From assembly GCA_026986575.1 (NCBI GenBank), contig JALSOH010000004.1, forward strand, positions 800,001 through 864,000: a stretch of 64,000 bases of DNA, given 5' to 3'. Both the position numbers and the translations under genes were made by a program. Positions 49,510-64,000 of the stretch are shown piece by piece. Numbering within the stretch: position 1 is the stretch's first letter; each line of letters begins with the position of its first letter. This DNA comes from Thermoproteota archaeon (GTDB lineage Archaea; Korarchaeota; Korarchaeia; Korarchaeales; Korarchaeaceae). The notes below the pieces were generated by a model. That model had not been told where the DNA came from and did not search any database. It saw only the letters and a program-made list of their open reading frames with translations.

Positions 49510-50472
49510 TCACTTCCCCCTTGACCTTTGAACCGCTCTACTCCTAAGCCTTCCCACTTCGTCCTCCGGAATGTACCACCTGCCAGCCAGCTTGACCGCC
49601 CTCAAGTATCCCTTCCTGGCGAGCTGCCCCAGGTAGTCGACGCTCATCCCCAGCTCCTTAGCCGCTGCCGATAGGGGAACCATGCCCTCCAGCGATCCCA
49701 AGTAGAGGGTCAGGCTCTCGTCCACCGCCCTCGCCACGAGGTTAGCTATTGGTCTAGCTCTCCCCCTGTCAGCCTCCTCCAAAGCCATGTAGTAGGCCCT
49801 CCGCCTCTCCTTCCTTATGACGGCCAGTGGATAGCCCTGCCTCAGCAGGAGGAGGTTCATCAGGAGCCTGGCCACCCTCCCGTTCCCGTCGGTGAAGGGG
49901 TGGATGGCCGTGAGGTAGGCGTGGGCCACGGCAGCCAGCTCGATCGGGTGGAGCTGATCACCGGCGCCGTTCAACCAGTCAACGAACCTCCCCATCAATT
50001 TCGGAACTTCCGAAGAAGGGGGCGGTACGTGACCCGATCCCCCGATGAAGACCTGTTCCCTCCTGTACTCGCCCGGTCTCGCTTCCCATATCCCCATCAT
50101 CACGAGGTGGTGGAGCTTGAGCAGGTCGAACTCCTCCACCCTCTCAGCGCGAGCGAGATCCTCCACGTACCTCAGAGCTTGAAGGTGGTTCCTGGCCTCT
50201 AAATGATCCCTCAAGGGCTTTCCTGCTACAGTTATACCTTCCTCGAGCACGAGCCTCGTCTCCCTGAGTGTGAGAGTGTTCCCCTCTATGGCGTTGGTGT
50301 TGTAGACGTACTCTATCGTCAGGAGGTTCCTCAGCCTAGCTAGGGCTTCTCTGCTGAGCGGGCGCTCGGAGCTGAGCCTCTTGAATCCCTCCTCTATCCT
50401 CGCCATGAGCGCCGGGGCTATCAGCGGGGACCTAGCTTGTTCCAGCAGGAGGAATCTGTATCGACTAATCAT
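49510..50472 (-). CDS. Fic-domain protein (class II) with C-terminal HTH
   Basis: TNAIEGN inhibitory motif, HPFTDGNGRVAR, C-terminal LSAAAKELG....L..LAR.G.L.A.K....WYI. Confidence 0.9.
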   Translation of the reverse strand: MISRYRFLLLEQARSPLIAPALMARIEEGFKRLSSERPLSREALARLRNLLTIEYVYNTNAIEGNTLTLRETRLVLEEGITVAGKPLRDHLEARNHLQALRYVEDLARAERVEEFDLLKLHHLVMMGIWEARPGEYRREQVFIGGSGHVPPPSSEVPKLMGRFVDWLNGAGDQLHPIELAAVAHAYLTAIHPFTDGNGRVARLLMNLLLLRQGYPLAVIRKERRRAYYMALEEADRGRARPIANLVARAVDESLTLYLGSLEGMVPLSAAAKELGMSVDYLGQLARKGYLRAVKLAGRWYIPEDEVGRLRSRAVQRSRGK

Positions 50473-51149
50473 GTTTTTCCGTATTATCGATATAGGTAAC
50501 AATATATAAAGACTGATCGCCGACGCTCGATGGGTTGCGCGTCGGGTCACTCCTCATTTACCGATCATTACGCGCGGGTATTATCTCCGTATGATCTGCG
50601 CATCACATCCTCGTCCCATCAAATTTAATCCTCCATTATCAAGTCGGCTGAGGGTGTGTGGTCTTTGAAGGGGCCGTCCGACGCTTACCTAGATGAGATT
50701 CGCATGTACTTCAAGGATAACCCTTGGATTCCCATCCTGAGGACTAGATCTCATGATCCAAATTTGAGCGAGCGTGCGCCGGGAGAGGCAGATCTGCTGG
50801 GATGATCGCGCAACCGTTTCACGTAGCAACCCACGCGCGAAGGTGGACATCTACACCTAAGACGTCGACGGGGTTACGATTAGCGTTCTGGAGGAGGGGA
50901 GTTCGCTGGATCGAGGTGGGAAAGGTCAAAATCCGGGTTCCTCCCCGAGTCCCTAGAGTGAGACCTCGAGGATGTATCCGCGAGGAGATTACTCCAAGCT
51001 CAGTAACTGATCGCACGGCACTTATATATCTTCTTCAACCGGAAGAACGTTAGGCGCGCGACCAAGAGAGCGCGCAGACTCTTTAGCTGGATCAGGCTTG
51101 GTATAGTGGTGCCAAGGTACCCCAAGATACCTCTTCACATGTGCTCCTG

Positions 51150-51926
51150 CTAATACACGAAGACGTATCTCACTCCAACAGATCTCAACTCTTTAGTCAG
51201 CCGGGCTTTCAGTCTCCTATAGTAAGAATCTAGATCACTATCCCAGTCCTTTACCCCCAGCTTACGCATGGCAGTATCCAACTTGGGTCTCAACCCGGGC
51301 TTCATGTTCAACCTGTCGAAGTATGCGACATCAGCCTTCCCCCTCAAAGCTCTCACCAGCTCCAAAACCTCCTCAACGCTCGTACCCGGTAATATCGGTC
51401 CGATGAAGGCGAAAGTCCCTATTCCTCGCTCCTTCAACTCCTCTAGGGCCTGAATCCTCCCATCCACACTTGGGGCGCGGGGCTCCATGACCCTCCTCAC
51501 CTCCTCTCCGAGGGTCACGATGGTCATGCCCACCCTAACCTGACTGAACCTCCTCAAGACGTCGATGTCCCTCAGCACCAAGGGAGACTTAGTCTGAACT
51601 AGGACGGGCCAATCCCTCTCCACCAATATCTCTAGGAGGCGCCTAGTGAGCTCGTACTCCCTCTCAACGGGCTGGTAAGGATCGGTCATGGAGGATAGGT
51701 AGACGACACCCTCCCTTTTCCTCCTCACCTCCTTGGCTAGGAGCTCAGGAGCGTTCACCTTCACCTCAATGTAGCTACCCCAAGCTTCGGTGCGCCCCCA
51801 CCTCCTCGCGTAAAATTGGGCGTAGCAGTAAATGCAGGCGTGCTGACATCCCACGTATGGGTTTATGACGTAATCGCCTATGGAACTCCTGTTCAGGATG
51901 GACTTAGCCCTTACCTCCTTTATCAC
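51150..51926 (-). CDS. SplB-like (Rv2578c/PA0069-type) radical SAM protein
   Basis: INPYVGCQHACIYCYA, SSMTDPYQP.E, QTKS.LVLRD, EP.APS...R. Confidence 0.88.
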   Translation of the reverse strand: MIKEVRAKSILNRSSIGDYVINPYVGCQHACIYCYAQFYARRWGRTEAWGSYIEVKVNAPELLAKEVRRKREGVVYLSSMTDPYQPVEREYELTRRLLEILVERDWPVLVQTKSPLVLRDIDVLRRFSQVRVGMTIVTLGEEVRRVMEPRAPSVDGRIQALEELKERGIGTFAFIGPILPGTSVEEVLELVRALRGKADVAYFDRLNMKPGLRPKLDTAMRKLGVKDWDSDLDSYYRRLKARLTKELRSVGVRYVFVY

Positions 51927-52133
51927 AAGCCATTGTCCGCGAGTCCCTTAAGTGCGTATCGTCGCGGCCAGTTTTAATTAGATCAGATTCAGATTGATTA
52001 GTAGGGAGGTTAGGAGTAGGGGCCAAGAATTACAGGAGGGCACCAAGATACGAAATCATATTCCCATAGACGGGATCTCCCTTCGTCTCTGGATCCCACA
52101 GATTTTATAGCTCGATCCTCCTCGTTAAGACCG

Positions 52134-53315
52134 GTGAAGAAGCTAAAGTTACTGACCGAGGACTTCAAGGTCAGGAGACTTGATAAAGTAGAAGTACGCT
52201 CCTTGCTCGGTTACATACCCAGCGCGGGCACTCTGGTAGAGGGCTCCTCACCTCCCGAGATATTCGTAGGGAGGTATGGCTACCCCAAAGTGTACATAGG
52301 TCCTCTGATCCCTCCCGTTCGGGGCAGCACGGAGCACTGGGGGATGAGCGAGCTCTGGTTCGGGAAGGGCCTGAAGGAGATAGTGGCCATGAGAATCCAG
52401 CTCCTCAGGGGGAAGAGGAAGCTGAAAGTGACCCAGATAGACGATAGGTATGCGAGGGAGCTGCAGGAGTCCATGCTCTCTAGGGAGTCGGTGGACATGG
52501 AGGCTAGGCTCAGGCATCCCCCTAAAGGAGCGATTCTATCGGAGGTGCACCAGCCCTTCGGACCCTCTGCTCTCCTCGAGGAGCTGAGGGTGGAGCCAGG
52601 GAGGTCCGATTCCAGGATGGAGAGGGCCTACTACGACAGGGACGCCAGAGCAACGGAGGCCATGATCGAGCTCTACGAGAGAGGGGTTCCTGTATCAAAG
52701 ATCCAGCAGGGGCTCAGTGCTGGCCTCCTCGGCATCGGGAGGAACAGGAAGTTCGTCCCTACTAGGTGGTCCATAACCGCTGTGGACGACACCCTTTCCA
52801 AATACCTGCTGAGGGAGGTCAGGACATACACTGAGATAAACGAGTACAGGCTGTACTACGGCGAGTACCTCAAGAACAGGTGGTCCGTGATCATGTTTCC
52901 CGAGAGGTGGAGTTACGAGTCCATAGAGGTTTGGTTCCCCGGGACCCTCCTGGAGGAGGTTGCCCTAGCGGGAGATTACGAGCCCTTCGAGGGTAGGTGG
53001 AGCTATGCCAGCATGGGAGGCTGCTACTATGCTGGAAGGCTGGCCGTGGCTGAGAAGCTCAGGGAGGAGAGGAGGCAGGCTACCGTGCTGATTCTCAGGG
53101 AGGCCCATCCGGGATACCTTCCCGTGGGAGTGTGGAATGTTAGGGAGACGGTCAGACACGTGCTCAGGTCCGATCCGCTTAAGTGCGACGAGCTGAGAGA
53201 GTGCCTCCAGCACGTGGAGAAGAGGATGAGCACTCCCCTCGATGTCTGGGTGGAGAATTCCGTGATCCTGAGGAAGCACCTGATCAAAGCGTCGCTTCAG
53301 GAGTACTTTAAGTGA
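52134..53315 (+). CDS. nre: Nre-family archaeal DNA repair protein
   Basis: GSSPP.IFVGRYGYPKV, VPTRWSITAVD, GGCYYA.RL, PVGVWNVRE; C-terminal PIP-like KASLQEYF. Confidence 0.9.
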   Translation: MKKLKLLTEDFKVRRLDKVEVRSLLGYIPSAGTLVEGSSPPEIFVGRYGYPKVYIGPLIPPVRGSTEHWGMSELWFGKGLKEIVAMRIQLLRGKRKLKVTQIDDRYARELQESMLSRESVDMEARLRHPPKGAILSEVHQPFGPSALLEELRVEPGRSDSRMERAYYDRDARATEAMIELYERGVPVSKIQQGLSAGLLGIGRNRKFVPTRWSITAVDDTLSKYLLREVRTYTEINEYRLYYGEYLKNRWSVIMFPERWSYESIEVWFPGTLLEEVALAGDYEPFEGRWSYASMGGCYYAGRLAVAEKLREERRQATVLILREAHPGYLPVGVWNVRETVRHVLRSDPLKCDELRECLQHVEKRMSTPLDVWVENSVILRKHLIKASLQEYFK

Positions 53316-53392
53316 GATAACACATTTGGACGGGAGATCAGACCTTCATGGATGGGTTATAAGTGAGCAGCCAATCTCGGCCCTGGATCCAC

Positions 53393-53776
53393 ATGCTCAG
53401 GGTAGCGGTTGGCGTGGACGACGACGAGACCAAGTTAAGCCAAGAGCATTTCGGTGACGCCAAGTACTACCTGATATACGAGGTGGAGGAGGACGGGAGC
53501 TACCGGCTCGTGGAGAAGAGGGTGAACACGGTCAGGGAGATGGAGGAGAGGGAGCACGGGGACCCTAGGAAATTCAAAGCTGTGGTGGAGCTCCTGAGCG
53601 ATGTCGATGTCTTCTTAGCGGGGAGAACGGGGCCCAACTTCCTCAGGGTCAGGGAGTCGAGGCACTACCCCATCGTGGTCGGGAGGAGGACTGTGGAGGA
53701 AGCTCTCTCAATCTTGGTGTGCAGGCTGGATGAGGTCCTAGACGAGGTTAGGAGGAGGAAGGACCTCAGGCGGTGA
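53393..53776 (+). CDS. NifB/NifX-family (FeMo-cofactor-binding-like) small protein
   Basis: RVAV, HFGDAKYYLIYE, R.N, VDV......GP. Confidence 0.85.
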   Translation: MLRVAVGVDDDETKLSQEHFGDAKYYLIYEVEEDGSYRLVEKRVNTVREMEEREHGDPRKFKAVVELLSDVDVFLAGRTGPNFLRVRESRHYPIVVGRRTVEEALSILVCRLDEVLDEVRRRKDLRR

Positions 53777-53783
53777 ATCAATC

Positions 53784-53836
53784 TCATCATCATCGGTCAT
53801 CATTAATAATTACATGATGATTCAGCACATGATGAC
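53784..53836 (+). promoter_or_regulatory. TCATCAT/ATGATGA inverted-repeat array around a TATA box (vapBC operator)
   Basis: tcatcat..gtcatcat-taataattac-atgatga..atgatgac. Confidence 0.5.
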
Positions 53837-54065
53837 CTACACAACGATACCCGTGAAGAAGGAGGTAAAGAGGAAACTTGAGCTCCTTAAAGGAGACAGG
53901 GACTGGAGCGATTTTCTGAACGAGCTGGCTGAAGAAGTCAATAAAGTCAAAAGAGACAAAGCCTTCGAGAAGCTGAGGGAAGAGGTGCTCCCCTACTTGG
54001 ACGAGGTGGAGGAATCCCACAGGAGGTTCAGGAGGGAATTCTCACTTGATACTGATCGACACTGA
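53829..54065 (+). CDS. vapB: VapB-type antitoxin
   Basis: TTIPVKKEVKRKLE.LKG..DWSDFL; overlaps the PIN gene. Confidence 0.8.
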   Translation: MMTYTTIPVKKEVKRKLELLKGDRDWSDFLNELAEEVNKVKRDKAFEKLREEVLPYLDEVEESHRRFRREFSLDTDRH

Positions 54066-54426
54066 TGTCCTGACAAATTCCCTCAGGAATGGCAAAAGGG
54101 TCGGGGATGCGATCTCCGCGATCGCTCTCTTGGAGTTCATTAGGGGAACACCTAGCGAGAAGAGGGAGGAAGTGAAGAGACTGTTAGAAGAGACCTACGA
54201 AGTAATCTGGCTGGATAACTCCATCCTGCTTGAGTACAGCAGACTTTACGATGTGCTGAAGGAGGAGGGATCCTTAATAGGCGATGCGGATCTGCTCATA
54301 GCGGCGACGGCAATATCTAAGGGGATGGAGCTACTCACCGGCAACCTTAGGCACTTCGCGAGGCTTAGGAGGTACGGACTCCGTCTTAAGGGAATGGAGG
54401 CGAGGAGTGGCTCAGAGATCACTTAG
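54046..54426 (+). CDS. vapC: PIN-domain toxin
   Basis: ILIDTDVL, ISAI..LEF, DADLLIAATA, LLTGN.RHF. Confidence 0.9.
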   Translation: MILIDTDVLTNSLRNGKRVGDAISAIALLEFIRGTPSEKREEVKRLLEETYEVIWLDNSILLEYSRLYDVLKEEGSLIGDADLLIAATAISKGMELLTGNLRHFARLRRYGLRLKGMEARSGSEIT

Positions 54427-55094
54427 ATGTACCGACCTCCTCTCGAGGCCACCATGCCACCCAAGTTAAAGCAGGAGTGGATCAGCACGGCTGGCAGCAG
54501 GGAATCGGCGTAGACCCTGAAGAAGCCGGCCACGAGACCCGCGGTCAGCGCTGTCGTCAGGACCCACCTAAGGTAGCAAGGGGGGGCCTCCCTGTAGGGT
54601 ACATAGTGGATCGCTGCGAAAAGGACCGCGGGCAGTGATATCGCTATTACCAGCGAGGTCGGATTCCCGCCCAGGCTCAGCAGCAGGTAGCCCTCCAGCA
54701 GACCTCTAAAGAGCATCTCCTCACCGATCGGTGCTATAAGAAGGAGGAGAATTACTCTCTCTGCCATGCCCTTGGGAAGGTGTGGAGATTCGTAGTAGCA
54801 GCTTCTGTAGGCGAGGCTACTCATAAACAGTGATAGGGGAAGGGAGATTGAGGCGGCCAGACCCAGCTTGTAAGGCGGAGCTCCCGAGAGAATGGAATAA
54901 GTCCAAACACCACCGGTGAGGTGGATTAGCAGCAGGGAGATCAGTCCATAAAGGACTTGGGAGGCAATTGCCGGGTAAAAGGGCCTCTCAGGTGCGAGTC
55001 TCGCGATGTAGGTTGCTACGAGCGCCGAGATCGATATTACTAGCCCCCACATGCCGATGGCTGTGGCTAGGGCTGCGATCCACATGCACCCCAT
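54423..55094 (-). CDS. CPBP/Abi (CAAX protease-like) intramembrane metalloprotease
   Basis: EEMLFRG, FAAIH, SLLPAVLIH..FN. Confidence 0.88.
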   Translation of the reverse strand: MGCMWIAALATAIGMWGLVISISALVATYIARLAPERPFYPAIASQVLYGLISLLLIHLTGGVWTYSILSGAPPYKLGLAASISLPLSLFMSSLAYRSCYYESPHLPKGMAERVILLLLIAPIGEEMLFRGLLEGYLLLSLGGNPTSLVIAISLPAVLFAAIHYVPYREAPPCYLRWVLTTALTAGLVAGFFRVYADSLLPAVLIHSCFNLGGMVASRGGRYI

Positions 55095-55114: not shown

Positions 55115-56716
55115 ATGCGCACGGTACTCATCTCATCCCCGAGGGGAATCGAAGGAAGGAAGGTAGGAAAGGAATTAAGTTTCCGGGATAGGGAAATACG
55201 GGAGGTAGGAGTGGAGGTCAGGGACATTTTCTTAGGCGTCTCGGGACACATACCCGAGGAGTGGATAGTGGCCTCGGATATCGACACCCTCACCGCCCAC
55301 GATCCCAAGGCTCCCCTCGCCATAGTTTTCGCCTCAAAGCTGGACCCAGATTCCCTCTCAAGAAAGCTCCTGAACTTAGTCCAGAAAGTACTCGGAGCTC
55401 CTCTACTGAACGTTAGAGCGGTCAGAAGGGAATTTATAGAGGTAAAGGCCGATTTACCATCCTCTCAAGGACTTCAACTGCTCGGGCTGCCGCCAGGAAA
55501 GCTGATCTTGAGGATACGACCGGGTCAGCTGACTAGGGGGTGGATCGCCCACCAATCCCTCTTCACCACAGAGCTGGAGGAGATATCTTCGACATTCCAT
55601 CCCGCTGAAGTCGTGAGGGCCAAGCCCCTTAGGATCGTGGATCCGGTTAGGAGAAAGACCGCGTTCAACTCAATGGTGCCCGAATCGGCGAGAGTGGAAC
55701 ATGGCTTGCTGAACGAGTCCCCTTACTTGGACATTAGGGGGAGAGGGTACAGGGTCGTCCTATACCCGCCCCAGAACTTCGTGCACGGGGATAACTTCAT
55801 AGCTCAGGCCTATCTGGCGATGGGGTACAGACCACACCCCTACGTGGATGCCAAGAATTACGCGTCCTCAGTCCTCAGCTCGATGGGATACCGGGTTACT
55901 GGAGTGGAGAGAGCTCCCATACCTGGAATCATCTCTCACGAGGTCTATGCATCCTTGGGCAGGTCCCTTGCCTCGGACATGCCTCCTATGATCAGCTCTT
56001 CCATCGCATGGTTGGATGGAGGGGCGGCCTGGGCCGTGACGATAGGGGAGAACCTCATGGACGTCCAGCTCTGGAGGGCTTACCTATACCTAGCTCTCGG
56101 CGAGGATGCGCTGGATATCCTGCAGAGCACCGTGCTGCACACAAGCGCCGACGTCAGGTGGCTCAACACCCTCAGCAGAGAGAGCAACGCGATGTACAGA
56201 TCCATAAGATCATCAATAAGGTCTTTCAGACTACCCAAGATTGATCTGGGCTCGTACATCCCGCAGATCCAGGAGGATAGGGACGAGTGGTGGAACGGTG
56301 ACGACTGGACCGGGGGACCTGGGAACGAGGACTACTCTCCCGACTCGACCTGGCTCTCCGACGAGATCTCCACTGGAACGGGGATGGATACCTTCTATGT
56401 GGACGGTGACGGGAGTGTGAGGAACATGGATCTAGGCGAGGAGGTGTCGTTCCATGAGATAGACAGCGAGGGCATATTAAGGGACGAGGAGGGGAATGAG
56501 GTCGGCTATGTGGATGATGGTTACGTTTACGACAGTGAGGGGGACAGGATGGGCTGGCTGGACACATCTATAAGCGACGAGTGGCAGATGGAGAGGCTAG
56601 AGTCGGAGAGCTCCGATCCAGTCGACGTATTCGGTTACTACGACTGGGGGGCTCAGAGGAATGAGGAGTCTACAGAGACACCCTACTACTCCAAGCGAGA
56701 TGAGGAAGAAGAGTGA
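55115..56716 (+). CDS. Hypothetical protein with very acidic C-terminal region; true start may be GTG near 55211
   Basis: 533-codon ORF; tail rich in D/E/W/Y/G, with repeated G.l.D.eG..vGy motifs. Confidence 0.65.
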   Translation: MRTVLISSPRGIEGRKVGKELSFRDREIREVGVEVRDIFLGVSGHIPEEWIVASDIDTLTAHDPKAPLAIVFASKLDPDSLSRKLLNLVQKVLGAPLLNVRAVRREFIEVKADLPSSQGLQLLGLPPGKLILRIRPGQLTRGWIAHQSLFTTELEEISSTFHPAEVVRAKPLRIVDPVRRKTAFNSMVPESARVEHGLLNESPYLDIRGRGYRVVLYPPQNFVHGDNFIAQAYLAMGYRPHPYVDAKNYASSVLSSMGYRVTGVERAPIPGIISHEVYASLGRSLASDMPPMISSSIAWLDGGAAWAVTIGENLMDVQLWRAYLYLALGEDALDILQSTVLHTSADVRWLNTLSRESNAMYRSIRSSIRSFRLPKIDLGSYIPQIQEDRDEWWNGDDWTGGPGNEDYSPDSTWLSDEISTGTGMDTFYVDGDGSVRNMDLGEEVSFHEIDSEGILRDEEGNEVGYVDDGYVYDSEGDRMGWLDTSISDEWQMERLESESSDPVDVFGYYDWGAQRNEESTETPYYSKRDEEEE

Positions 56717-57042: not shown

Positions 57043-58377
57043 TCAGACGGCCAGTCCCGATCTGACCTTCGATATCACATACATGAACTTACCTGACGCG
57101 GGCTTGGGCACGCTGTCCACTAGCTCCCACCTTATGATAACATCTCCCAAGACCTCCCTGATCTTCCCCTCGGGTACTGAGAGGGAGACCCTCGTCCCTC
57201 CCCTTGGAGCGATGAATATCCTGAGGGTGCTCAGATCCTCCTGAATAACTTGGAACTCCCTGACCCACTCCTCCACCCTGAAGACCCCCTCGAAGAACTC
57301 GCCCCCCAAAAGGGAGCCGTCCCTCCTCACCACGAACTCGGTGGCCCTGCCCTCAATACTACCCATCCTCGGTAGAAAGGAGCCACAAGAGCACCTCCCC
57401 TCAACCGCCCTAGCCATGTCGCCTATCTCGTACCTTATGAGAGGCATCACGTAGTTGTGTAGAGGAGTCACGACGACGTTCCCGAGCGCCCCATCCGGGG
57501 CCTTCCCGCCCGAGTCGTCGAGGATCTCTATCAAGTTGTTGAAAGAGAAAACGTGGAGGGATCCGTCACTGCACTCTCCAGCTATGGACGGGGCCTCTCT
57601 GGCCCCGTAGAAATTGTATACCCTACCGAATGCCTCCTCTATCATCTCCCTCTTCCATTTGTTTAGCGTTTCCCCGGTTGAGATCACCGCCTTCGGCCTG
57701 AACACCTCAATCCCCCTCCTGAGGGCGTACTCAGCCACGGCAGCTAGGAAGTGAGGAAGCCCCCTGAGGATGTCCGGTCTGTAATCCTCTAGCTTCCTCA
57801 GGACCCTCTCAATTAACCGTTGATCTATGAGGTAAGCGTTGAAGTAGACTGCTCCGTCAAGGAAGTGGGTCATCTTGGATAGAGGGGATATACCGCCGAG
57901 GAGTTCAGCAGCTGAGCCCCAAATGATCATTTTCCTGGCCTTCAGCAGATCTATCCCCAAGAACCAACTGTAATAGAAGACCTCCGTGGCCTTACTCCAG
58001 CGGTAGGATCTCACATCTCTGAAGAACCTTATGGGCCTTGCTGTCGATCCTCCAGTGGTCCCGGTTGATGCCCTCATCCTTTCCATGTCTGTGGAGGTCA
58101 GATCATCGAGATGTGCCTGGACGAAGGATCTTTTGAGGACAGGGATCTCGTCAAAATGGGTTAATGGGTCTTCGAAGTTCCTCAACAGCCGAGTGTAGTG
58201 CGGTACTTTCTTTTCAGCGTACTCTAAGAGGGATCTCAGGGACTCTCTAACGAAATCCTCTAATAGCATATCACCACGCATAATGGACTCTATCGTCCTG
58301 AGTTCCCGCCTGAAGTCCCGACCCGTCAGCCTCATCAGCGCCAATACGGCACTCTTCCTGAGGAAGCTCCCCAACAT
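57043..58377 (-). CDS. Phenylacetate-CoA ligase/CapK-like adenylate-forming enzyme
   Basis: TGGSTARP P-loop, STGETL, NFYGARE, MPLIRYEIGD, EGR, FQVIQ, SGK; TATA-like TTTTTA about 27 nt upstream. Confidence 0.88.
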   Translation of the reverse strand: MLGSFLRKSAVLALMRLTGRDFRRELRTIESIMRGDMLLEDFVRESLRSLLEYAEKKVPHYTRLLRNFEDPLTHFDEIPVLKRSFVQAHLDDLTSTDMERMRASTGTTGGSTARPIRFFRDVRSYRWSKATEVFYYSWFLGIDLLKARKMIIWGSAAELLGGISPLSKMTHFLDGAVYFNAYLIDQRLIERVLRKLEDYRPDILRGLPHFLAAVAEYALRRGIEVFRPKAVISTGETLNKWKREMIEEAFGRVYNFYGAREAPSIAGECSDGSLHVFSFNNLIEILDDSGGKAPDGALGNVVVTPLHNYVMPLIRYEIGDMARAVEGRCSCGSFLPRMGSIEGRATEFVVRRDGSLLGGEFFEGVFRVEEWVREFQVIQEDLSTLRIFIAPRGGTRVSLSVPEGKIREVLGDVIIRWELVDSVPKPASGKFMYVISKVRSGLAV

Positions 58378-58707
58378 TCTCCTAAAGCACCCGATGGACC
58401 CGTAAAAAGGATTGGTGATGTTGGGTGTTAGGCCAGCTAGTTGCCCCCACCAGCCCGACGGGAAATAGAACGTCATTTGTTGTGAAATGCAAGCAGGTTC
58501 CGGCTCCTAATGGCCCTCACAATGCCAACAGGCGACCGAGATCAGATCCGGTATTACAAGCTAAACGGACATAAAAAGAACTTATTCTTTAATCCAATTA
58601 TTCCTGGTAGATATCCACGCCTGATCTGAATCGTAGTTTTCAGAATGAATCTGCAGAGCCGTCAGCTTCATCATAGACGGAACCACTTAATGAGAAATTC
58701 TAGTTCG

Positions 58708-58782
58708 TCAATAGACGTATATTGGGAGGTGATTGGGACTGCCGCCCTCTACTCCAGTACCCCCTTTGCCAGAGCCTAGCAC
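58708..58782 (-). CDS. Candidate micro-ORF, 24 aa (MLGSGKGGTGVEGGSPNHLPIYVY)
   Basis: GTG start 7 nt after AGGGAG, directly following the regulator stop. Confidence 0.3.
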   Translation of the reverse strand: MLGSGKGGTGVEGGSPNHLPIYVY

Positions 58783-58795
58783 ATAAAAGCTCCCT

Positions 58796-60286
58796 TCACA
58801 ATTTTTTGTAGCAGGTCTCGAGATCCCTCTTCAATCTGATGACTGGGTCCTCCCATGTGAAGGTCCCACTTTCCTCATCCCACAGATCTATGGGGAGCCT
58901 CCAGCCGGGACTTATATCCAAGAAATCCTCCGCCAAGACGAGTTGATCTCCGTAAACGGACTTCACCGTCCAAATGAGATCCCCCCTCACTTCTGGCCTA
59001 GTGACTAGGAGAGATAGCAGCCCCTCGAAGTCATCCCCCTCTATGTAATGGGTGAGTACCGATCCCACCGACCTCAGGAAGGAGTGGAAGGGTACCATCT
59101 CATCATGGGAGGCCCTCACTATCAGCATGAGTTTTTCCATGCCCTTAGGGATCCCGTGGAAGTACATCCTGATTATGTAACCGTCCTTCCTAAGTCGGCC
59201 GAGCCTCTTCTTCGGATCAGGAATTCTCTCCCTCTTCAGGAGCTTGTGAGTGACCTTCCCGTGCTTGAAAACTAGGTTAAGTATCCTCAAATCGTTCCTG
59301 TCGAGGTTGGACTCTGGCCTCTTCACGAGAATGCTCAGGTCCCTCCCCCTAGGCTGGGGCCTGGACAATTCCTCCACCGAATCGTACGGGCTCCTCCCAG
59401 CATCGAGAGAGAGGCCAAAGGCTGCGTCCTTCACGAGATACAGCGGGATCCTTCCATCTAGCGCATCTCTCAGGGCATCAAGACCCTGGTAGGGGTAGGA
59501 CAAATATGCCCTCACGTGCGCCTCTGATGAGACCGGGATGTACGCGCTATAGGTGTACGGAAACCTCCAGAAGGCCTTCCTGCACTCTCTATTGTTGGGA
59601 TACGTGATGAGGAGGGTCGTCAGACCTAACTTCCAGTTATCCACGTTCTCAGGTCCGAATATCATGCCAAGCATCCTCAGCTTCTTCAAAGACCTGCTCA
59701 GGGTGGCTCCGGTTATCCCCATCCCCCTGATCTCCCTGTCGGTAGCCAGAGGGTTCCTTGAGATGATCTCCATTATCTTGGCATCGCTCTCGGTGATCCT
59801 CACCGTCATCCCAGCGATCCTGTTGAGGAGTGCCATGTAAGTTTCGAAGTCGAGGGATCCCCTCTCAGCGGCAAGGTTAACTATCATAAGCAGGTTCCCC
59901 ACGACCCTATCCATCTCTCCCTCTTGGATGAGCGAGAGGAGTTCGTATGGATCGTAATCATGGAACGGACCTTCTGGGGAAATTCTACACCTCAACCACA
60001 GCTTCTTGGGGGATCCCGAGTAGTACCAAGCCACATCGTGCACCTGAGGTACAACATCCACCCCCAGGACGGTATGTAGGATCACCGCCTCCTTTTTCAG
60101 GACCTGAGGAAGCCACTTGACCACTCCTCTAGCCACGAGGAGGGCCTCTCCATCGTAACCGGTGCATCTGCCCCCAGGCACTTCGTCGACGATCCTCACC
60201 TCCTTGGGGATAGGTCTGCGGATCTCCAATCCAGTCGACTTAGAGACATCCTCGATCTTCGCGTGCAGCTCACTGACCGGATCCAT
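58796..60286 (-). CDS. Multidomain regulator, paralogue B (N-terminal domain + two HTH/Lrp-like modules)
   Basis: ESDAKIMEII..NP......G....TLSRSLKKL and LDRNDLRIL.....G......RL..L...G.I; co-linear with the upstream paralogue. Confidence 0.75.
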   Translation of the reverse strand: MDPVSELHAKIEDVSKSTGLEIRRPIPKEVRIVDEVPGGRCTGYDGEALLVARGVVKWLPQVLKKEAVILHTVLGVDVVPQVHDVAWYYSGSPKKLWLRCRISPEGPFHDYDPYELLSLIQEGEMDRVVGNLLMIVNLAAERGSLDFETYMALLNRIAGMTVRITESDAKIMEIISRNPLATDREIRGMGITGATLSRSLKKLRMLGMIFGPENVDNWKLGLTTLLITYPNNRECRKAFWRFPYTYSAYIPVSSEAHVRAYLSYPYQGLDALRDALDGRIPLYLVKDAAFGLSLDAGRSPYDSVEELSRPQPRGRDLSILVKRPESNLDRNDLRILNLVFKHGKVTHKLLKRERIPDPKKRLGRLRKDGYIIRMYFHGIPKGMEKLMLIVRASHDEMVPFHSFLRSVGSVLTHYIEGDDFEGLLSLLVTRPEVRGDLIWTVKSVYGDQLVLAEDFLDISPGWRLPIDLWDEESGTFTWEDPVIRLKRDLETCYKKL

Positions 60287-60303
60287 TCGGTTGTTCAACC
60301 TCC

Positions 60304-60360
60304 CTAACCAATATTACCTTTCCTCCACCAGTCCCCGGGCCCGTCCGGTGTGATTACCAC
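60304..60360 (-). CDS. Candidate micro-ORF, 18 aa (MVITPDGPGDWWRKGNIG)
   Basis: GTG immediately after the TAG of paralogue A; fills most of the gap between the paralogues. Confidence 0.3.
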   Translation of the reverse strand: MVITPDGPGDWWRKGNIG

Positions 60361-61869
60361 CTATCCTTGTGGGACCGGCCGGGATCGAGGGAGGCACGCC
60401 TCGAGATCATCCTTTAACCTCTCGAGGGGTTCCCTCCACAAGAATTTCTGCGACCCCTCGTCCCACAGATCTATAGGGAGCCTCCAACCCGGCTTAATGT
60501 CCACGAAATCCTCGGCCAGAAGCACTCTTTCACCGTATACGGTCCTGACCACTCTGAGGATATCTCCCCTAATCTCCGGAGGGGCCATAAGCACGCCCAT
60601 CAGGTAGGAGACCTCGCCCTCTAGGTGCTGAATCATCACCGATCCTCCGGATCCCAGCACCCCCAACAGGGTATCCATCTCCTCGGGTTCATCCTCCACT
60701 AGGACGATCGCCTTCTCTACGCCCATGGGTAACGTTAACCGATAGAGACTGGTGATGATTCCGGCCCCCCTCAGCTTTCTGAGCCTGGACCTAGCTTCCG
60801 GAACCCCCTTCTTGGTCAGGATGTTGACAGACACCTTTCCCTCCTCGAGGACGAAATTAAGCACGTCCAAATCGAGCTCATCAACTCGGACAGGTGGAGA
60901 CGAGGTGGCAATGAACTCCACCTTTTCTCCAAACTCTTGAGGGGTGGCCAGATTTATCGCCTCGAATGGGTCCCTGACGGGGTCGAAATTGAATCTCAGG
61001 AGGGTTTTCCTAACTAGGAATACAACCAATCCAAGGTTCCGAAGCGAGAGCAGATCGTCCATCCCTTCATATGGGTATGAGAGGTATGCATGGGCGTCGA
61101 TCTCGCTCGACACAGGTACCAGCATGCTGCGCGTGTAAGGAAACCTCCAGAAAGCCTTTCTGCACTCCTTTCGGTTGGAGAACGATATCAGAAAGGTAGA
61201 CAGCCCTAGTTTATGATAATCCACGTTCTCGGGGCCAGATATCATCCTCAGAGTCCTCAACTTCCCCATGGACTTCGTCAAGGAGGATCCTCCCATCCCC
61301 CTCCTCCTGATGTAGTCAGAGGTAGCGCGTGGATTCTCTGAGATTATCCTTATCAGCTTCACGTCAGAGTCGGAGAGACCAACGCTAGAACCGACGATCT
61401 TGTAGAGGAGAGCCATGTACATCGGGAACTCTAAGTTACCCAGCCTAGCTGAGGCGTTCACTATCCTGATGATGGTTCCGAGCACCCTGTTCCTCTCCTT
61501 AGAAGGGACCATGGAGAAAAGCCTGTAGGGGTCGTAATCGTGAAATGGGCTCCCAGGCGGGATTCTACACCTCTCCCAGAGTTCTCTGGGGGCCGAAGAG
61601 TATATCCACGCCAAGTCGTGAACTTGGGGGACCTCATCCACCTCTGGCACCATTAGAGAGATCGCAGCTTCCTTCGCCAATACATACGGGAGCACGTCCC
61701 CAGCCAATTTGGCGGATACTAGGAGGGCGTCGCCTTTCCTATGAGTGCACCCATTGCTGGGAAGATCCTCGACTACTCTCATCCGCTTGGGGACGCTCCT
61801 CCTAATCTCCAAGCCAAGTAGTCTAGAGGCCCTCTCAACTTCCCTCTCGACTTCAGCGATAAAGCCCAT
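60361..61869 (-). CDS. Multidomain regulator, paralogue A
   Basis: Shares GLEIRR, KEA, VPQVHD.AW.YS, PFHDYDPY, GPENVD..KLGL, ECRKAFWRFPYT and PGWRLPIDLWDE with paralogue B. Confidence 0.75.
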   Translation of the reverse strand: MGFIAEVEREVERASRLLGLEIRRSVPKRMRVVEDLPSNGCTHRKGDALLVSAKLAGDVLPYVLAKEAAISLMVPEVDEVPQVHDLAWIYSSAPRELWERCRIPPGSPFHDYDPYRLFSMVPSKERNRVLGTIIRIVNASARLGNLEFPMYMALLYKIVGSSVGLSDSDVKLIRIISENPRATSDYIRRRGMGGSSLTKSMGKLRTLRMISGPENVDYHKLGLSTFLISFSNRKECRKAFWRFPYTRSMLVPVSSEIDAHAYLSYPYEGMDDLLSLRNLGLVVFLVRKTLLRFNFDPVRDPFEAINLATPQEFGEKVEFIATSSPPVRVDELDLDVLNFVLEEGKVSVNILTKKGVPEARSRLRKLRGAGIITSLYRLTLPMGVEKAIVLVEDEPEEMDTLLGVLGSGGSVMIQHLEGEVSYLMGVLMAPPEIRGDILRVVRTVYGERVLLAEDFVDIKPGWRLPIDLWDEGSQKFLWREPLERLKDDLEACLPRSRPVPQG

Positions 61870-62182
61870 TCAGAGTCCTTCGAACGCTGGATTAATTTAT
61901 TCGTTCCCCTCGCTGAAAGGAGAAATTGTCTAGCCTTTCTCCTCCAACTCGCACACGATGTATAGTGGCAGTTTGAGCGGTGCTCAGGGAGGAGAGGAGA
62001 GACCCGGGGATCCGACGAGAAGGATCTCGGAGACAATTGCCTAAAGGGGAGGAGAACCGGGAGATGGAGCGAGGGGGACCGAACGAATGCCCGCCCCCCA
62101 TCGCTCCAATAGAGAGCGACCATTCTCTTATATAAGTTATGCGTTCGACGGACCCGCGCAGCGCTCGCGAGCCTGCGAATCG

Positions 62183-63724
62183 TCATCCTACGTCCAGGTC
62201 GCCCTCTAGAAGGAGCACGATCTCCTTCCTGACCTGATCGAGGAGCAGCATGAGGGACCTCCTGAGGGCCACCAGCTCGTATACCCTGACGGTCCTGCTC
62301 CCCTTTCCCCTCCTCCCGACGCGCCTAGACCTCACCAGATTGAGCCTGGTGAGCTTCCCCAGATCGTCCTCGTACTCCGCCCTCTCCCCCCTGTAGATGG
62401 GTGAGAGCAGGGTCACGATCTCTGGAAGGCTGAGGCCCTCTCTCTCCTCACGGGCCTCCAGCTTCTCAGCCAAGCTCCCCCTTCCCCTGACGCAGTTCCT
62501 CAGGGAGCTAGAGTTACCCTGATGGAAGTATAGGCACAGGACCTCAGCCACCCTCTTGGCGTAATCGGACCTGCCCATGAACTTCCCGTCCAAGAACTCC
62601 TTGGCGGCCAGGGCCTGCAGGATGGCGCACTCCCTCTCCTCCAGCGCGACGAGCACGTCGTCCACGTTGGGTTGAGATGCCCCGAGCCTGAATAGGTTAA
62701 CAGATATCCTCACCGCCTTCTTCAGGTCTAGGGTCGGGAGCCAGAAACCCTCTATGTATCTCCTAAATCTCCTCTCCACGTCGAAGTTCCTCAAGAGGTG
62801 GGAGTACGTGGAGCCGAAGGTCGCGTCCCGCCATCCCGTGACGTTCCTGAGCACCTCGGGATTCAGGATCATGAGGCCGTTGACGAGGCTCCACTCCCCA
62901 TGGAACCAGAGCGATGAGCTGGTGTAGAACACCTTCTGGGCGAGCACCAGATCTATGCCCATCCTGAGCATGCCCCTGACCCTCTTCCTCGCCTTCTTGT
63001 TCACCTGCCTGCTCCTGCCGAGGGACATCATCACCAGCACACCGTCTACCGAGGAGAAGACGGTATCGTAGAGCCTGTGCACCAGCACGTCAGGTTTCCT
63101 CATCTTCAGCTTCAGGGGAGAGATCAACTCCTTGACCAGATCCAGCGGCATATCCTCCACGGGGGCCGGGAAGTACACCTCGGTGAAGAACCTCGAAGCC
63201 CTGATGTTCGGGATCTCCCTTCTCTTCAGTTCGTCATTTATGGCTCCCTTGAACTCCCCGGCCAAATCGGGCCACTCAGAAGCTAGGCGATAGAGATCGC
63301 TTGAGAGTCCGGGGCTGACCTCGACCACCTTAGACAGCCTGATGGACCTCAGGCCTGACGAGTAGATCCTCTCCTCCCAGGTCGCATCCTCCAGTACCTT
63401 TCTCACCTTCCTCCCCAGGAAACCCGGGCAAGGGTTCTCCACCGTGGGCACTGAGCCTTCCAGCTCCCTTCCTAGGAATGTGGAGCAGTTGGTGGCGAGT
63501 TTCACCCCCTCCCTTATCACATGCTCCTCGTCCCACCCAGCCCTCCTGACAGCATCGCTGCCTGACCGGTTATGGAGGATGGGAACGAATTCAGGTTCCA
63601 AGTAGACCTTGCCCAGCGTCAGGGTTACCCTCAAGTTTTCCCTCCAAGTAACCCCGACCTGTCCAACAAAAATTTCACCACGCCGGGGGGAACCGCGTTC
63701 ATGCAGGGATTGGCCGGGCACCAA
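62183..63724 (-). CDS. Hypothetical protein with C-terminal winged-helix-like domain; start uncertain
   Basis: 513-codon ORF; GLSLPEI...L.KL...NLV.S......G.......Y.L pattern. Confidence 0.6.
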   Translation of the reverse strand: MVPGQSLHERGSPRRGEIFVGQVGVTWRENLRVTLTLGKVYLEPEFVPILHNRSGSDAVRRAGWDEEHVIREGVKLATNCSTFLGRELEGSVPTVENPCPGFLGRKVRKVLEDATWEERIYSSGLRSIRLSKVVEVSPGLSSDLYRLASEWPDLAGEFKGAINDELKRREIPNIRASRFFTEVYFPAPVEDMPLDLVKELISPLKLKMRKPDVLVHRLYDTVFSSVDGVLVMMSLGRSRQVNKKARKRVRGMLRMGIDLVLAQKVFYTSSSLWFHGEWSLVNGLMILNPEVLRNVTGWRDATFGSTYSHLLRNFDVERRFRRYIEGFWLPTLDLKKAVRISVNLFRLGASQPNVDDVLVALEERECAILQALAAKEFLDGKFMGRSDYAKRVAEVLCLYFHQGNSSSLRNCVRGRGSLAEKLEAREEREGLSLPEIVTLLSPIYRGERAEYEDDLGKLTRLNLVRSRRVGRRGKGSRTVRVYELVALRRSLMLLLDQVRKEIVLLLEGDLDVG

Positions 63725-63797: not shown

Positions 63798-64000
63798 TTG
63801 AGGACGATCCTTATCGGGGTCGAAGATCTCGGAGTGAGGCTAGCTGAGAGGCTCATATCCACTGTCAAGAGGTCGTCCTTATTGGAGAGGGGTGCTAAGC
63901 TCATCCTAGAGACCTACTACGTGGACGATTCCGGGAGGAGGGAGAGGCTCAGAGCATCCTACGAGCTCGACGATACATTCCTCGGGGAGAGCGAAACCCT
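63798..64000 (+). CDS. 5' fragment of a gene with a Rossmann/tubulin-FtsZ-like first strand-helix; runs off the window
   Basis: TTG after GAGG; MRTILIGVEDLGVRLAERL...ETYYVDD, open to the window end. Confidence 0.5.
   Translation, partial: MRTILIGVEDLGVRLAERLISTVKRSSLLERGAKLILETYYVDDSGRRERLRASYELDDTFLGESET

Follow-up and report, generated by a model that had tools for sequence, protein, structure and literature searches.

A proline-rich micropeptide gene tied in position to a predicted zincin-like, double-Lrp regulator in Korarchaeia

We analysed a stretch of 64,000 nucleotides (the window) from the genome of a Thermoproteota archaeon of the family Korarchaeaceae (contig JALSOH010000004.1, positions 800,001 to 864,000). 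The window carries two tandem paralogous genes for large regulators, which we will term A and B. On the strand opposite B lies a tiny gene for a proline-rich peptide, and similar genes adjoin most full-length members of the regulator family. Judging from sequence comparison, this micropeptide gene is under coding-type selection and is positionally tied to the regulator gene. We tentatively propose that the peptide is a ligand of the regulator. The features at the center of this argument are:

58739..58786, + strand: Pro-rich micropeptide gene, convergent with B; 15 aa (MPPSTPVPPLPEPST) from CTG, or 17 aa if it starts at TTG 58733
58725..58732, + strand: Shine-Dalgarno (SD) site of the micropeptide; perfect over 8 nt (GGAGGTGA) and invariant in 4 of 4 orthologous loci
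58682..58720, + strand: candidate promoter or operator; a conserved non-coding block that lies upstream of the micropeptide and contains a short inverted repeat
58802..58807, + strand: T-run after the micropeptide; candidate terminator
58796..60286, − strand: regulator B, 496 aa from ATG 60286 or 500 aa from TTG 60298; HTH_24 (Pfam) at E 7.5e-05
60361..61869, − strand: regulator A, 502 aa; predicted gluzincin-like N-domain without zinc-binding His (about residues 1-165), then two winged helix-turn-helix (wHTH) + Lrp/RAM modules

All four orthologous B loci keep GGAGGTGA, the CTG 6 nt later, and the stop codon of the antisense open reading frame (ORF). Within the micropeptide, 37 of the 51 pairwise base differences among these loci are at codon position 3, and the codon differences are mostly synonymous (33, versus 10 non-synonymous). 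The upstream block has dense invariant columns in the four loci and forms a small hairpin in predicted folds, while the sequence farther upstream diverges. The combination of signals is also rare: an SD site of at least 7 nt plus a T-run is found at 6 of the 43,693 small ORFs of the host genome (G000), and the full 8-nt SD site plus a T-run at only two, both of which are regulator-adjacent Pro-rich peptides (one is the window's). At this locus, where the micropeptide's stop is 9 nt from that of B, the T-run overlaps the terminal Lys codons of B and so is not independent evidence. Because the window's micropeptide lacks the usual Gly-Pro start and ranks only 268 on a matrix from other clades, it is a diverged member of its family.

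Across the homologous loci, a conserved ribosome-binding site on the opposite strand is followed by a Pro-rich ORF. This ORF is divergent at some loci, where it lies about 160-210 bp upstream of the regulator, and convergent at the others, 9-230 bp downstream of it. The peptides are 11-24 aa long with the consensus M-x(0-4)-G-P-x-x-P-P-x-P. An antisense micro-ORF with this Pro motif lies within 300 bp of 34 of the 42 full-length family genes for which both flanks are readable (32 if two doubtful A-type rows are left out), and the same rule finds a hit on the regulator's own strand for 1 of the 42. As a control, 31 of 781 long genes in G000 match, and 6 of these are family loci. (The rule was drawn from the same data and the loci are related, so these counts are descriptive and are not a test statistic.) After the rule was fixed, three more full-length Korarchaeia genes became available: two pass, and at the third a Pro-rich ORF matches more loosely. 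Also, with a matrix trained on other genomes, three regulator-adjacent peptides rank 1-3 among 43,696 small ORFs of G000. The earlier note on this DNA, which was made from the window's sequence alone, had asked whether a short ORF always follows the homologues; a conserved micro-ORF is indeed near most of them, but it is antisense and not at every gene.

The coding signal extends beyond the B loci. Over eight groups of related peptides, codon position 3 accounts for 344 of the 495 pairwise base differences, and 288 codon differences are synonymous versus 103 non-synonymous, with all four Pro and Gly codons in use. An SD-like site precedes 35 of 41 candidate rows, and a run of five Ts follows within 60 nt in 31 of the 41, versus 2.1% of 20,000 random windows. 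(We retained 41 of 44 rows; L081, L101, and the second ORF at L091 were dropped because they did not resemble the family or lay within other genes.) In a FastTree phylogeny, whose long branches are unreliable, peptide type tracks regulator clade: the B clade carries the convergent micropeptide, and in the ancestral single-copy clade the peptide is upstream of the regulator and divergent. When the sequences upstream of 31 peptide genes were searched by Gibbs sampling for an operator common to the family, they gave only a weak A-rich motif (information content 10.5 versus 8.6-8.7 for shuffled sequences, and 12.3 versus 9.6), which we did not accept. Separately, in 9 of the 41 rows (by eye and without a shuffle control) an anti-SD segment upstream pairs with the whole SD site of the peptide to form a hairpin, which suggests gated translation. 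These rows (L034, L035, L040, L042, L054, L057, L061, L064, and G000 C10:7160-7254) are mostly cas-linked convergent loci, and their hairpin sequences differ.

The regulators themselves largely fit what the earlier note had described: tandem paralogues of about 500 aa (46% identical across 497 aa), each with two helix-turn-helix (HTH) + Lrp/RAM modules and an N-terminal helix (LPYVLAKEAAI or LPQVLKKEAVI) like that of a zincin that has lost its His ligands. The helices are present, and an AlphaFold2 model and fold searches, a check that the note had called for, back both the modules and the zincin-like N-domain. These folds are predicted with high confidence, and the N-domain is zincin-like in two independent models. 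With the register assumed from the helix motif, position 66 (the first His of HExxH) is Arg or Lys in 35 of 36 sequences, Glu67 is kept in 35 of 36, and position 70 is mostly Ile or Ser. The HExxH with two zinc-binding histidines that marks an active zincin metallopeptidase was not found. A profile of the N-domain had no match among PDB sequences up to E 10. A wHTH followed by a RAM (ferredoxin-like) domain, the hallmark of Lrp/AsnC proteins, occurs twice in the regulator, and Foldseek matched NirDL (E 1.5e-06) and Lrp chains (probability about 1). A zincin-like alpha/beta domain and two modules, each of an HTH and a beta-sheet RAM domain, account for the high-confidence model, and a Pfam scan at E up to 1 found no tetratricopeptide repeat (TPR) families.

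The family is present in 26 of 40 genomes of the class Korarchaeia, with most members at 490-530 aa, and G000 (1.91 Mb) has four further copies, one of which is frameshifted. In the phylum of a Thorarchaeota genome, 29 of 41 genomes have weaker matches (E up to 1e-8), a few of them full length and many confined to the HTH region. Among 43 pattern matches on viral contigs, none was a relative. In addition, among proteins P0034-P0047, A-like and B-like proteins form four pairs that share an equal size of longest contig, which suggests that the tandem arrangement recurs in other assemblies.

A third gene belongs with the regulator and the peptide:

62183..63634, − strand: partner gene U, 483 aa from a TTG start (the longest ORF reaches 63724); alpha/beta N-region and C-terminal winged helix in the predicted model

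U is upstream of A and has homologues at 34 of 47 regulator loci, and at 15 of the 47 there are cas genes within 8 kb (Cas1, 3, 4, 5, 6, 7, Csa1, RAMPs, and Csx1). The window's locus is not among these 15. The earlier note's account of the module missed both U and the link to cas operons. Foldseek gave no match to U at E 0.001, and in VIA the list was filled by the winged helix, so that the N-region was barely tested. Searches of Pfam, NCBIfam, and PADLOC, with U taken as a whole protein, found no CARF domain in A, B, or U, and PADLOC matched 0 of 11 proteins. A complex prediction for regulator A and U (both as alignments) scored 0.00 in two runs, which speaks neither for nor against binding. 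Atlas feature matches of U to nucleotidyltransferase-like clusters (0.84-0.87, with low shared-feature counts) are a lead only. Elsewhere, at G000 C6:423-436 kb, L067, and L094, several large genes that have no Pfam or PADLOC match are enclosed by genes for a Cas3-like helicase, Cas6, Cas1, Cas4, and a BrxC/D-like ATPase; these are possibly divergent class 1 CRISPR loci.

We propose, at chances that we would put a little below even, that the peptide acts in trans as the regulator's ligand, for which the simplest site would be the cleft of the catalytically dead peptidase domain, and that binding switches the regulator's DNA binding, with U as a co-regulator. The large regulator, the Pro-rich peptide, and U would then form a lineage-specific three-gene module. 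The peptide would be transcribed from its own small unit on the strand opposite the regulator, and the regulator and U would control transcription both of the peptide gene and of its neighbours, which are often a cas operon. In divergent and convergent layouts alike, the peptide keeps its position next to the regulator while U changes place, which points to a product that acts in trans with the regulator as its partner; its retention in convergent layouts with no attenuable downstream gene also argues for action in trans. The peptide would have to work unprocessed, and it would probably act inside the cell, which is simpler because no exporter or protease travels with the module. In the window, the regulator is duplicated; B keeps the diverged peptide, and A may share it or have none.

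Two considerations weigh against this proposal. First, distant homologues keep the zincin helix motifs, yet a convincing antisense candidate is found at only 1 of 16 such loci. Second, the proposal draws on sequence comparison and structural models, and it presumes both translation of the peptide and its binding. The candidate among the distant loci is at L115 (G052:C11), where a 14-aa antisense ORF with a Gly-Pro-Pro start lies upstream of the distant homologue; it is the only one of the family type. A single case of another kind is L166 (G058:C27), where a 23-aa Pro/Trp/Asp-rich ORF with an SD-like site lies on the same strand, about 130-200 bp upstream of a distant homologue.

The peptide's partner could instead be U, either as a sensor or as an enzyme that modifies a precursor, with the regulator controlling only the promoter of the peptide gene. 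This would fit the well-flanked loci, of which 26 of 29 have the peptide and 26 of 29 have U, as well as the ancestral layout, in which the peptide gene is just upstream of U on the same strand. Also, distant homologues are without U and, mostly, without the peptide, and U has a large N-region with no assigned fold. However, where cas6 or the regulator separates the two genes (L035, L054, and the C6 430 kb locus of the host itself), the peptide remains next to the regulator, and the N-region of U has few invariant polar residues, so we consider this explanation unlikely but a serious one. Polyproline translation is known for ribosome stalling and dependence on aIF5A, and the peptide could be a cis-acting leader that couples its own translation to read-through of the T-run into downstream genes. 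Divergent loci do run in the order peptide, T-run, and then U or a cas operon, and the SD-sequestering hairpins suggest translational gating. But these hairpins are mainly in convergent loci, and convergent loci (including the window's) keep the motif although nothing but the antisense 3' end of the regulator gene lies downstream on the peptide strand; a leader is thus distinctly improbable. We give even less weight to a small structured or antisense RNA as the functional product, with Pro codons that reflect constraints on a C-rich RNA. It would account for the gene's own T-run, the 5' hairpins, the invariably antisense orientation, and, at some loci, an overlap with the 3' end of the regulator. 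It would not explain why core columns use all four Pro and Gly codons with changes concentrated at third positions or why a strong SD site sits at start-codon spacing, and divergent copies do not overlap the coding part of the regulator transcript.

The earlier note had a different pairing in mind: two Gly-rich peptides on the same strand as A and B, each with its own receptor and either controlling or modified by a CapK/PaaK-like ligase, with a CPBP protease about 2 kb further, which in this scheme would process the peptides. The ORFs and genes concerned, together with a further candidate near A, are:

60304..60360, − strand: 18-aa ORF; SD run of 3 nt; probably a chance intergenic ORF
58708..58782, − strand: 24-aa Gly-rich ORF; best SD run of 4 nt; antisense shadow of the Pro-rich micropeptide
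57043..58377, − strand: adenylate-forming ligase, PaaK/F390-synthetase-like; the likely start gives 444 aa (the longest ORF reaches 58476)
54423..55094, − strand: CPBP (Rce1-like) intramembrane protease; PF02517 at E 5.5e-15
62064..62135, + strand: 23-aa ORF divergent from A, a doubtful candidate for a second micropeptide; SD of 5 nt, open in 3 loci
62128-62135: TATA-like TTATATAA, beside a hairpin at 62065-62108

Both the ligase and the protease are where the note put them, but each is linked to the regulators at just 2 of 47 loci, those of this genome and of the near-identical G020, where the ligase is frameshifted. As for the ORFs, the 24-aa frame is open with its GTG and stop in 3 of 4 orthologous B loci, and because it reads the Pro-rich ORF in reverse complement and shares its wobble positions, synonymous bias does not tell them apart. 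Still, both its start and its stop are lost in G011, and in at least 8 of 41 rows across the family (by eye) a stop interrupts the shadow frame within the peptide span. In G020, whose orthologue is 95% identical, the stop of the 18-aa ORF is lost, and two other A-type genes (L032 and L071) are followed by no counterpart of this ORF. With these losses, the short SD runs, and the strand preference of the Pro motif, we find the same-strand scheme barely credible. The antisense ORF, which the note had treated as a competitor of the 24-aa ORF, is the peptide gene that the comparison supports. What survives of its receptor-peptide idea is a His-less zincin-like regulator and a conserved micropeptide gene across the family; its choice of ORFs, a separate pair for A, and the role of the ligase do not. 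(The composition of the L166 ORF loosely resembles that of the 18-aa ORF.)

The well-supported peptide in the window is thus that of B only. The candidate at 62064-62135 passed the Pro-motif rule at first and was later downgraded: it has 0 synonymous changes and no T-run, and it overlaps the hairpin, which has a strong G/C stem (z −2.2; 7 of 200 shuffles were as good). It is probably not a second micropeptide gene, though the chance is appreciable; the frame may instead be a shadow of the hairpin next to the TATA-like box.

The ligase matches phenylacetate-CoA ligases in the PDB (E 7e-21), and its NCBIfam matches are all below the cut-off. In G005 and G011, its slot is occupied by a CARDB-like gene, and the short loci seen for other ligase homologues adjoin epimerase, sulfatase, or PfkB genes. 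The ligase fills the slot that is divergent from the micropeptide in a lineage-specific manner and is outside the conserved system. It could be a local target, given the intergenic region that it has in common with the peptide gene, and in our proposal it would be at most a recently acquired one. The conserved maturation enzyme and exporter expected of a peptide made by the ribosome and modified after translation (RiPP) were not found: the ligase and the protease are at 2 of 47 loci, and no other recognised cluster of enzymes is seen again from one clade to the next. U may be a RiPP-type maturation enzyme, as the remaining possibility.

The window has other genes as well. A 533-aa protein (55115-56716, + strand) with an acidic C-tail has weak beta-flower matches below the Pfam cut-off; it is also at the syntenic G011 locus and was not seen at that of G020. 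Radical SAM, Nre, and NifB/NifX-like genes and a PIN-type pair lie at 49510-54426, along with what we take, by motif, to be a Fic-like protein. The gene at 63798-64000 (G000 C4:863798-865993) is in three pieces and is a single 704-aa ORF in G020. A paralogous module and cas1/cas4-like genes at G000 C4:875-882 kb are likewise fragmented; either decay or assembly indels could account for both.

It is instructive to compare the module with known systems. Zincin sensors of the IrrE/ImmA/CapP type are paired with HTH regulators, which links a zincin-like domain to HTH-based control of stress or defence genes. Our regulator differs in that it has no HExxH histidines and so is not a protease, is fused to a double Lrp, and is paired with a micropeptide. 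Csa3a and Csa3b are CARF-wHTH regulators whose genes are within or flank archaeal cas operons; in contrast, neither of our regulators has a CARF match in Pfam, and two-thirds of their loci have no nearby cas gene. Relative to Lrp/AsnC proteins and the fused double-Lrp fold of NirDL/AhbAB (13-20% identity), the regulator adds the N-terminal domain. Also, NirDL is an enzyme, and the regulator loci have no haem-pathway context.

The closest likeness is to bacterial RRNPP(A) systems, including leaderless communication peptides (LCP) of the RopB type and Rgg with short hydrophobic peptides (SHP). According to two papers on these systems, a cytosolic DNA-binding protein of about 500 aa lies beside an ultra-small ORF that has no secretion signal and is often divergent, and the adjacent target genes vary (PMC10518010, PMC10075063). 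Leaderless peptides of 8-9 aa act on the adjacent cytosolic regulator and are exported in bacteria (PMC10518010), so that signalling between cells is conceivable for the present peptides too. The adjoining peptide gene (34 of 42 family genes) and the receptor size (about 250-500 aa there, 496-502 aa in the window) agree. However, our regulator has a predicted zincin-like domain and two Lrp modules with internal HTHs in place of TPRs, the peptide is Pro-rich rather than hydrophobic, a winged-helix third gene is conserved, the system is archaeal, and export has no support here. By inspection, the 11-24-aa peptides have no hydrophobic stretch of the sort expected of a Sec signal or of SHP or LCP composition. 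The module would work like RRNPP/LCP cassettes but, by the criteria given in PMC10075063, is not a member, as it has no TPR and no secretion signal.

Our literature search, which left subscription journals and preprint supplements outside, found no description of this regulator family or of an archaeal regulator-peptide cassette. New here are the corrected strand, the refuted link to the ligase, the diverged peptide of the B clade, and the SD-sequestering hairpins in cas-linked convergent loci. The window's locus is also an example of how antisense shadow frames can mislead micro-ORF calls. A far-reaching idea, which we think quite unlikely, is that archaea independently evolved peptide sensing, in which a leaderless polyproline peptide passes between cells, is read by a repurposed, dead metallopeptidase domain that a double-Lrp factor carries, with a winged-helix protein as co-regulator, and tunes CRISPR-Cas and accessory loci to population density or infection, with paralogous pairs, such as this tandem, diverging into separate channels. 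As material for experiments the cassette is well defined and inexpensive: the proteins are of thermophile type and have confident models, and the peptides, 11-24 aa long, can be synthesized as cognate and non-cognate variants. Should the dead peptidase domain prove to bind the peptide, it would be a receptor fold unrelated to the TPR receptors, and one could go on to ask whether archaea signal by peptides, also in the control of CRISPR.

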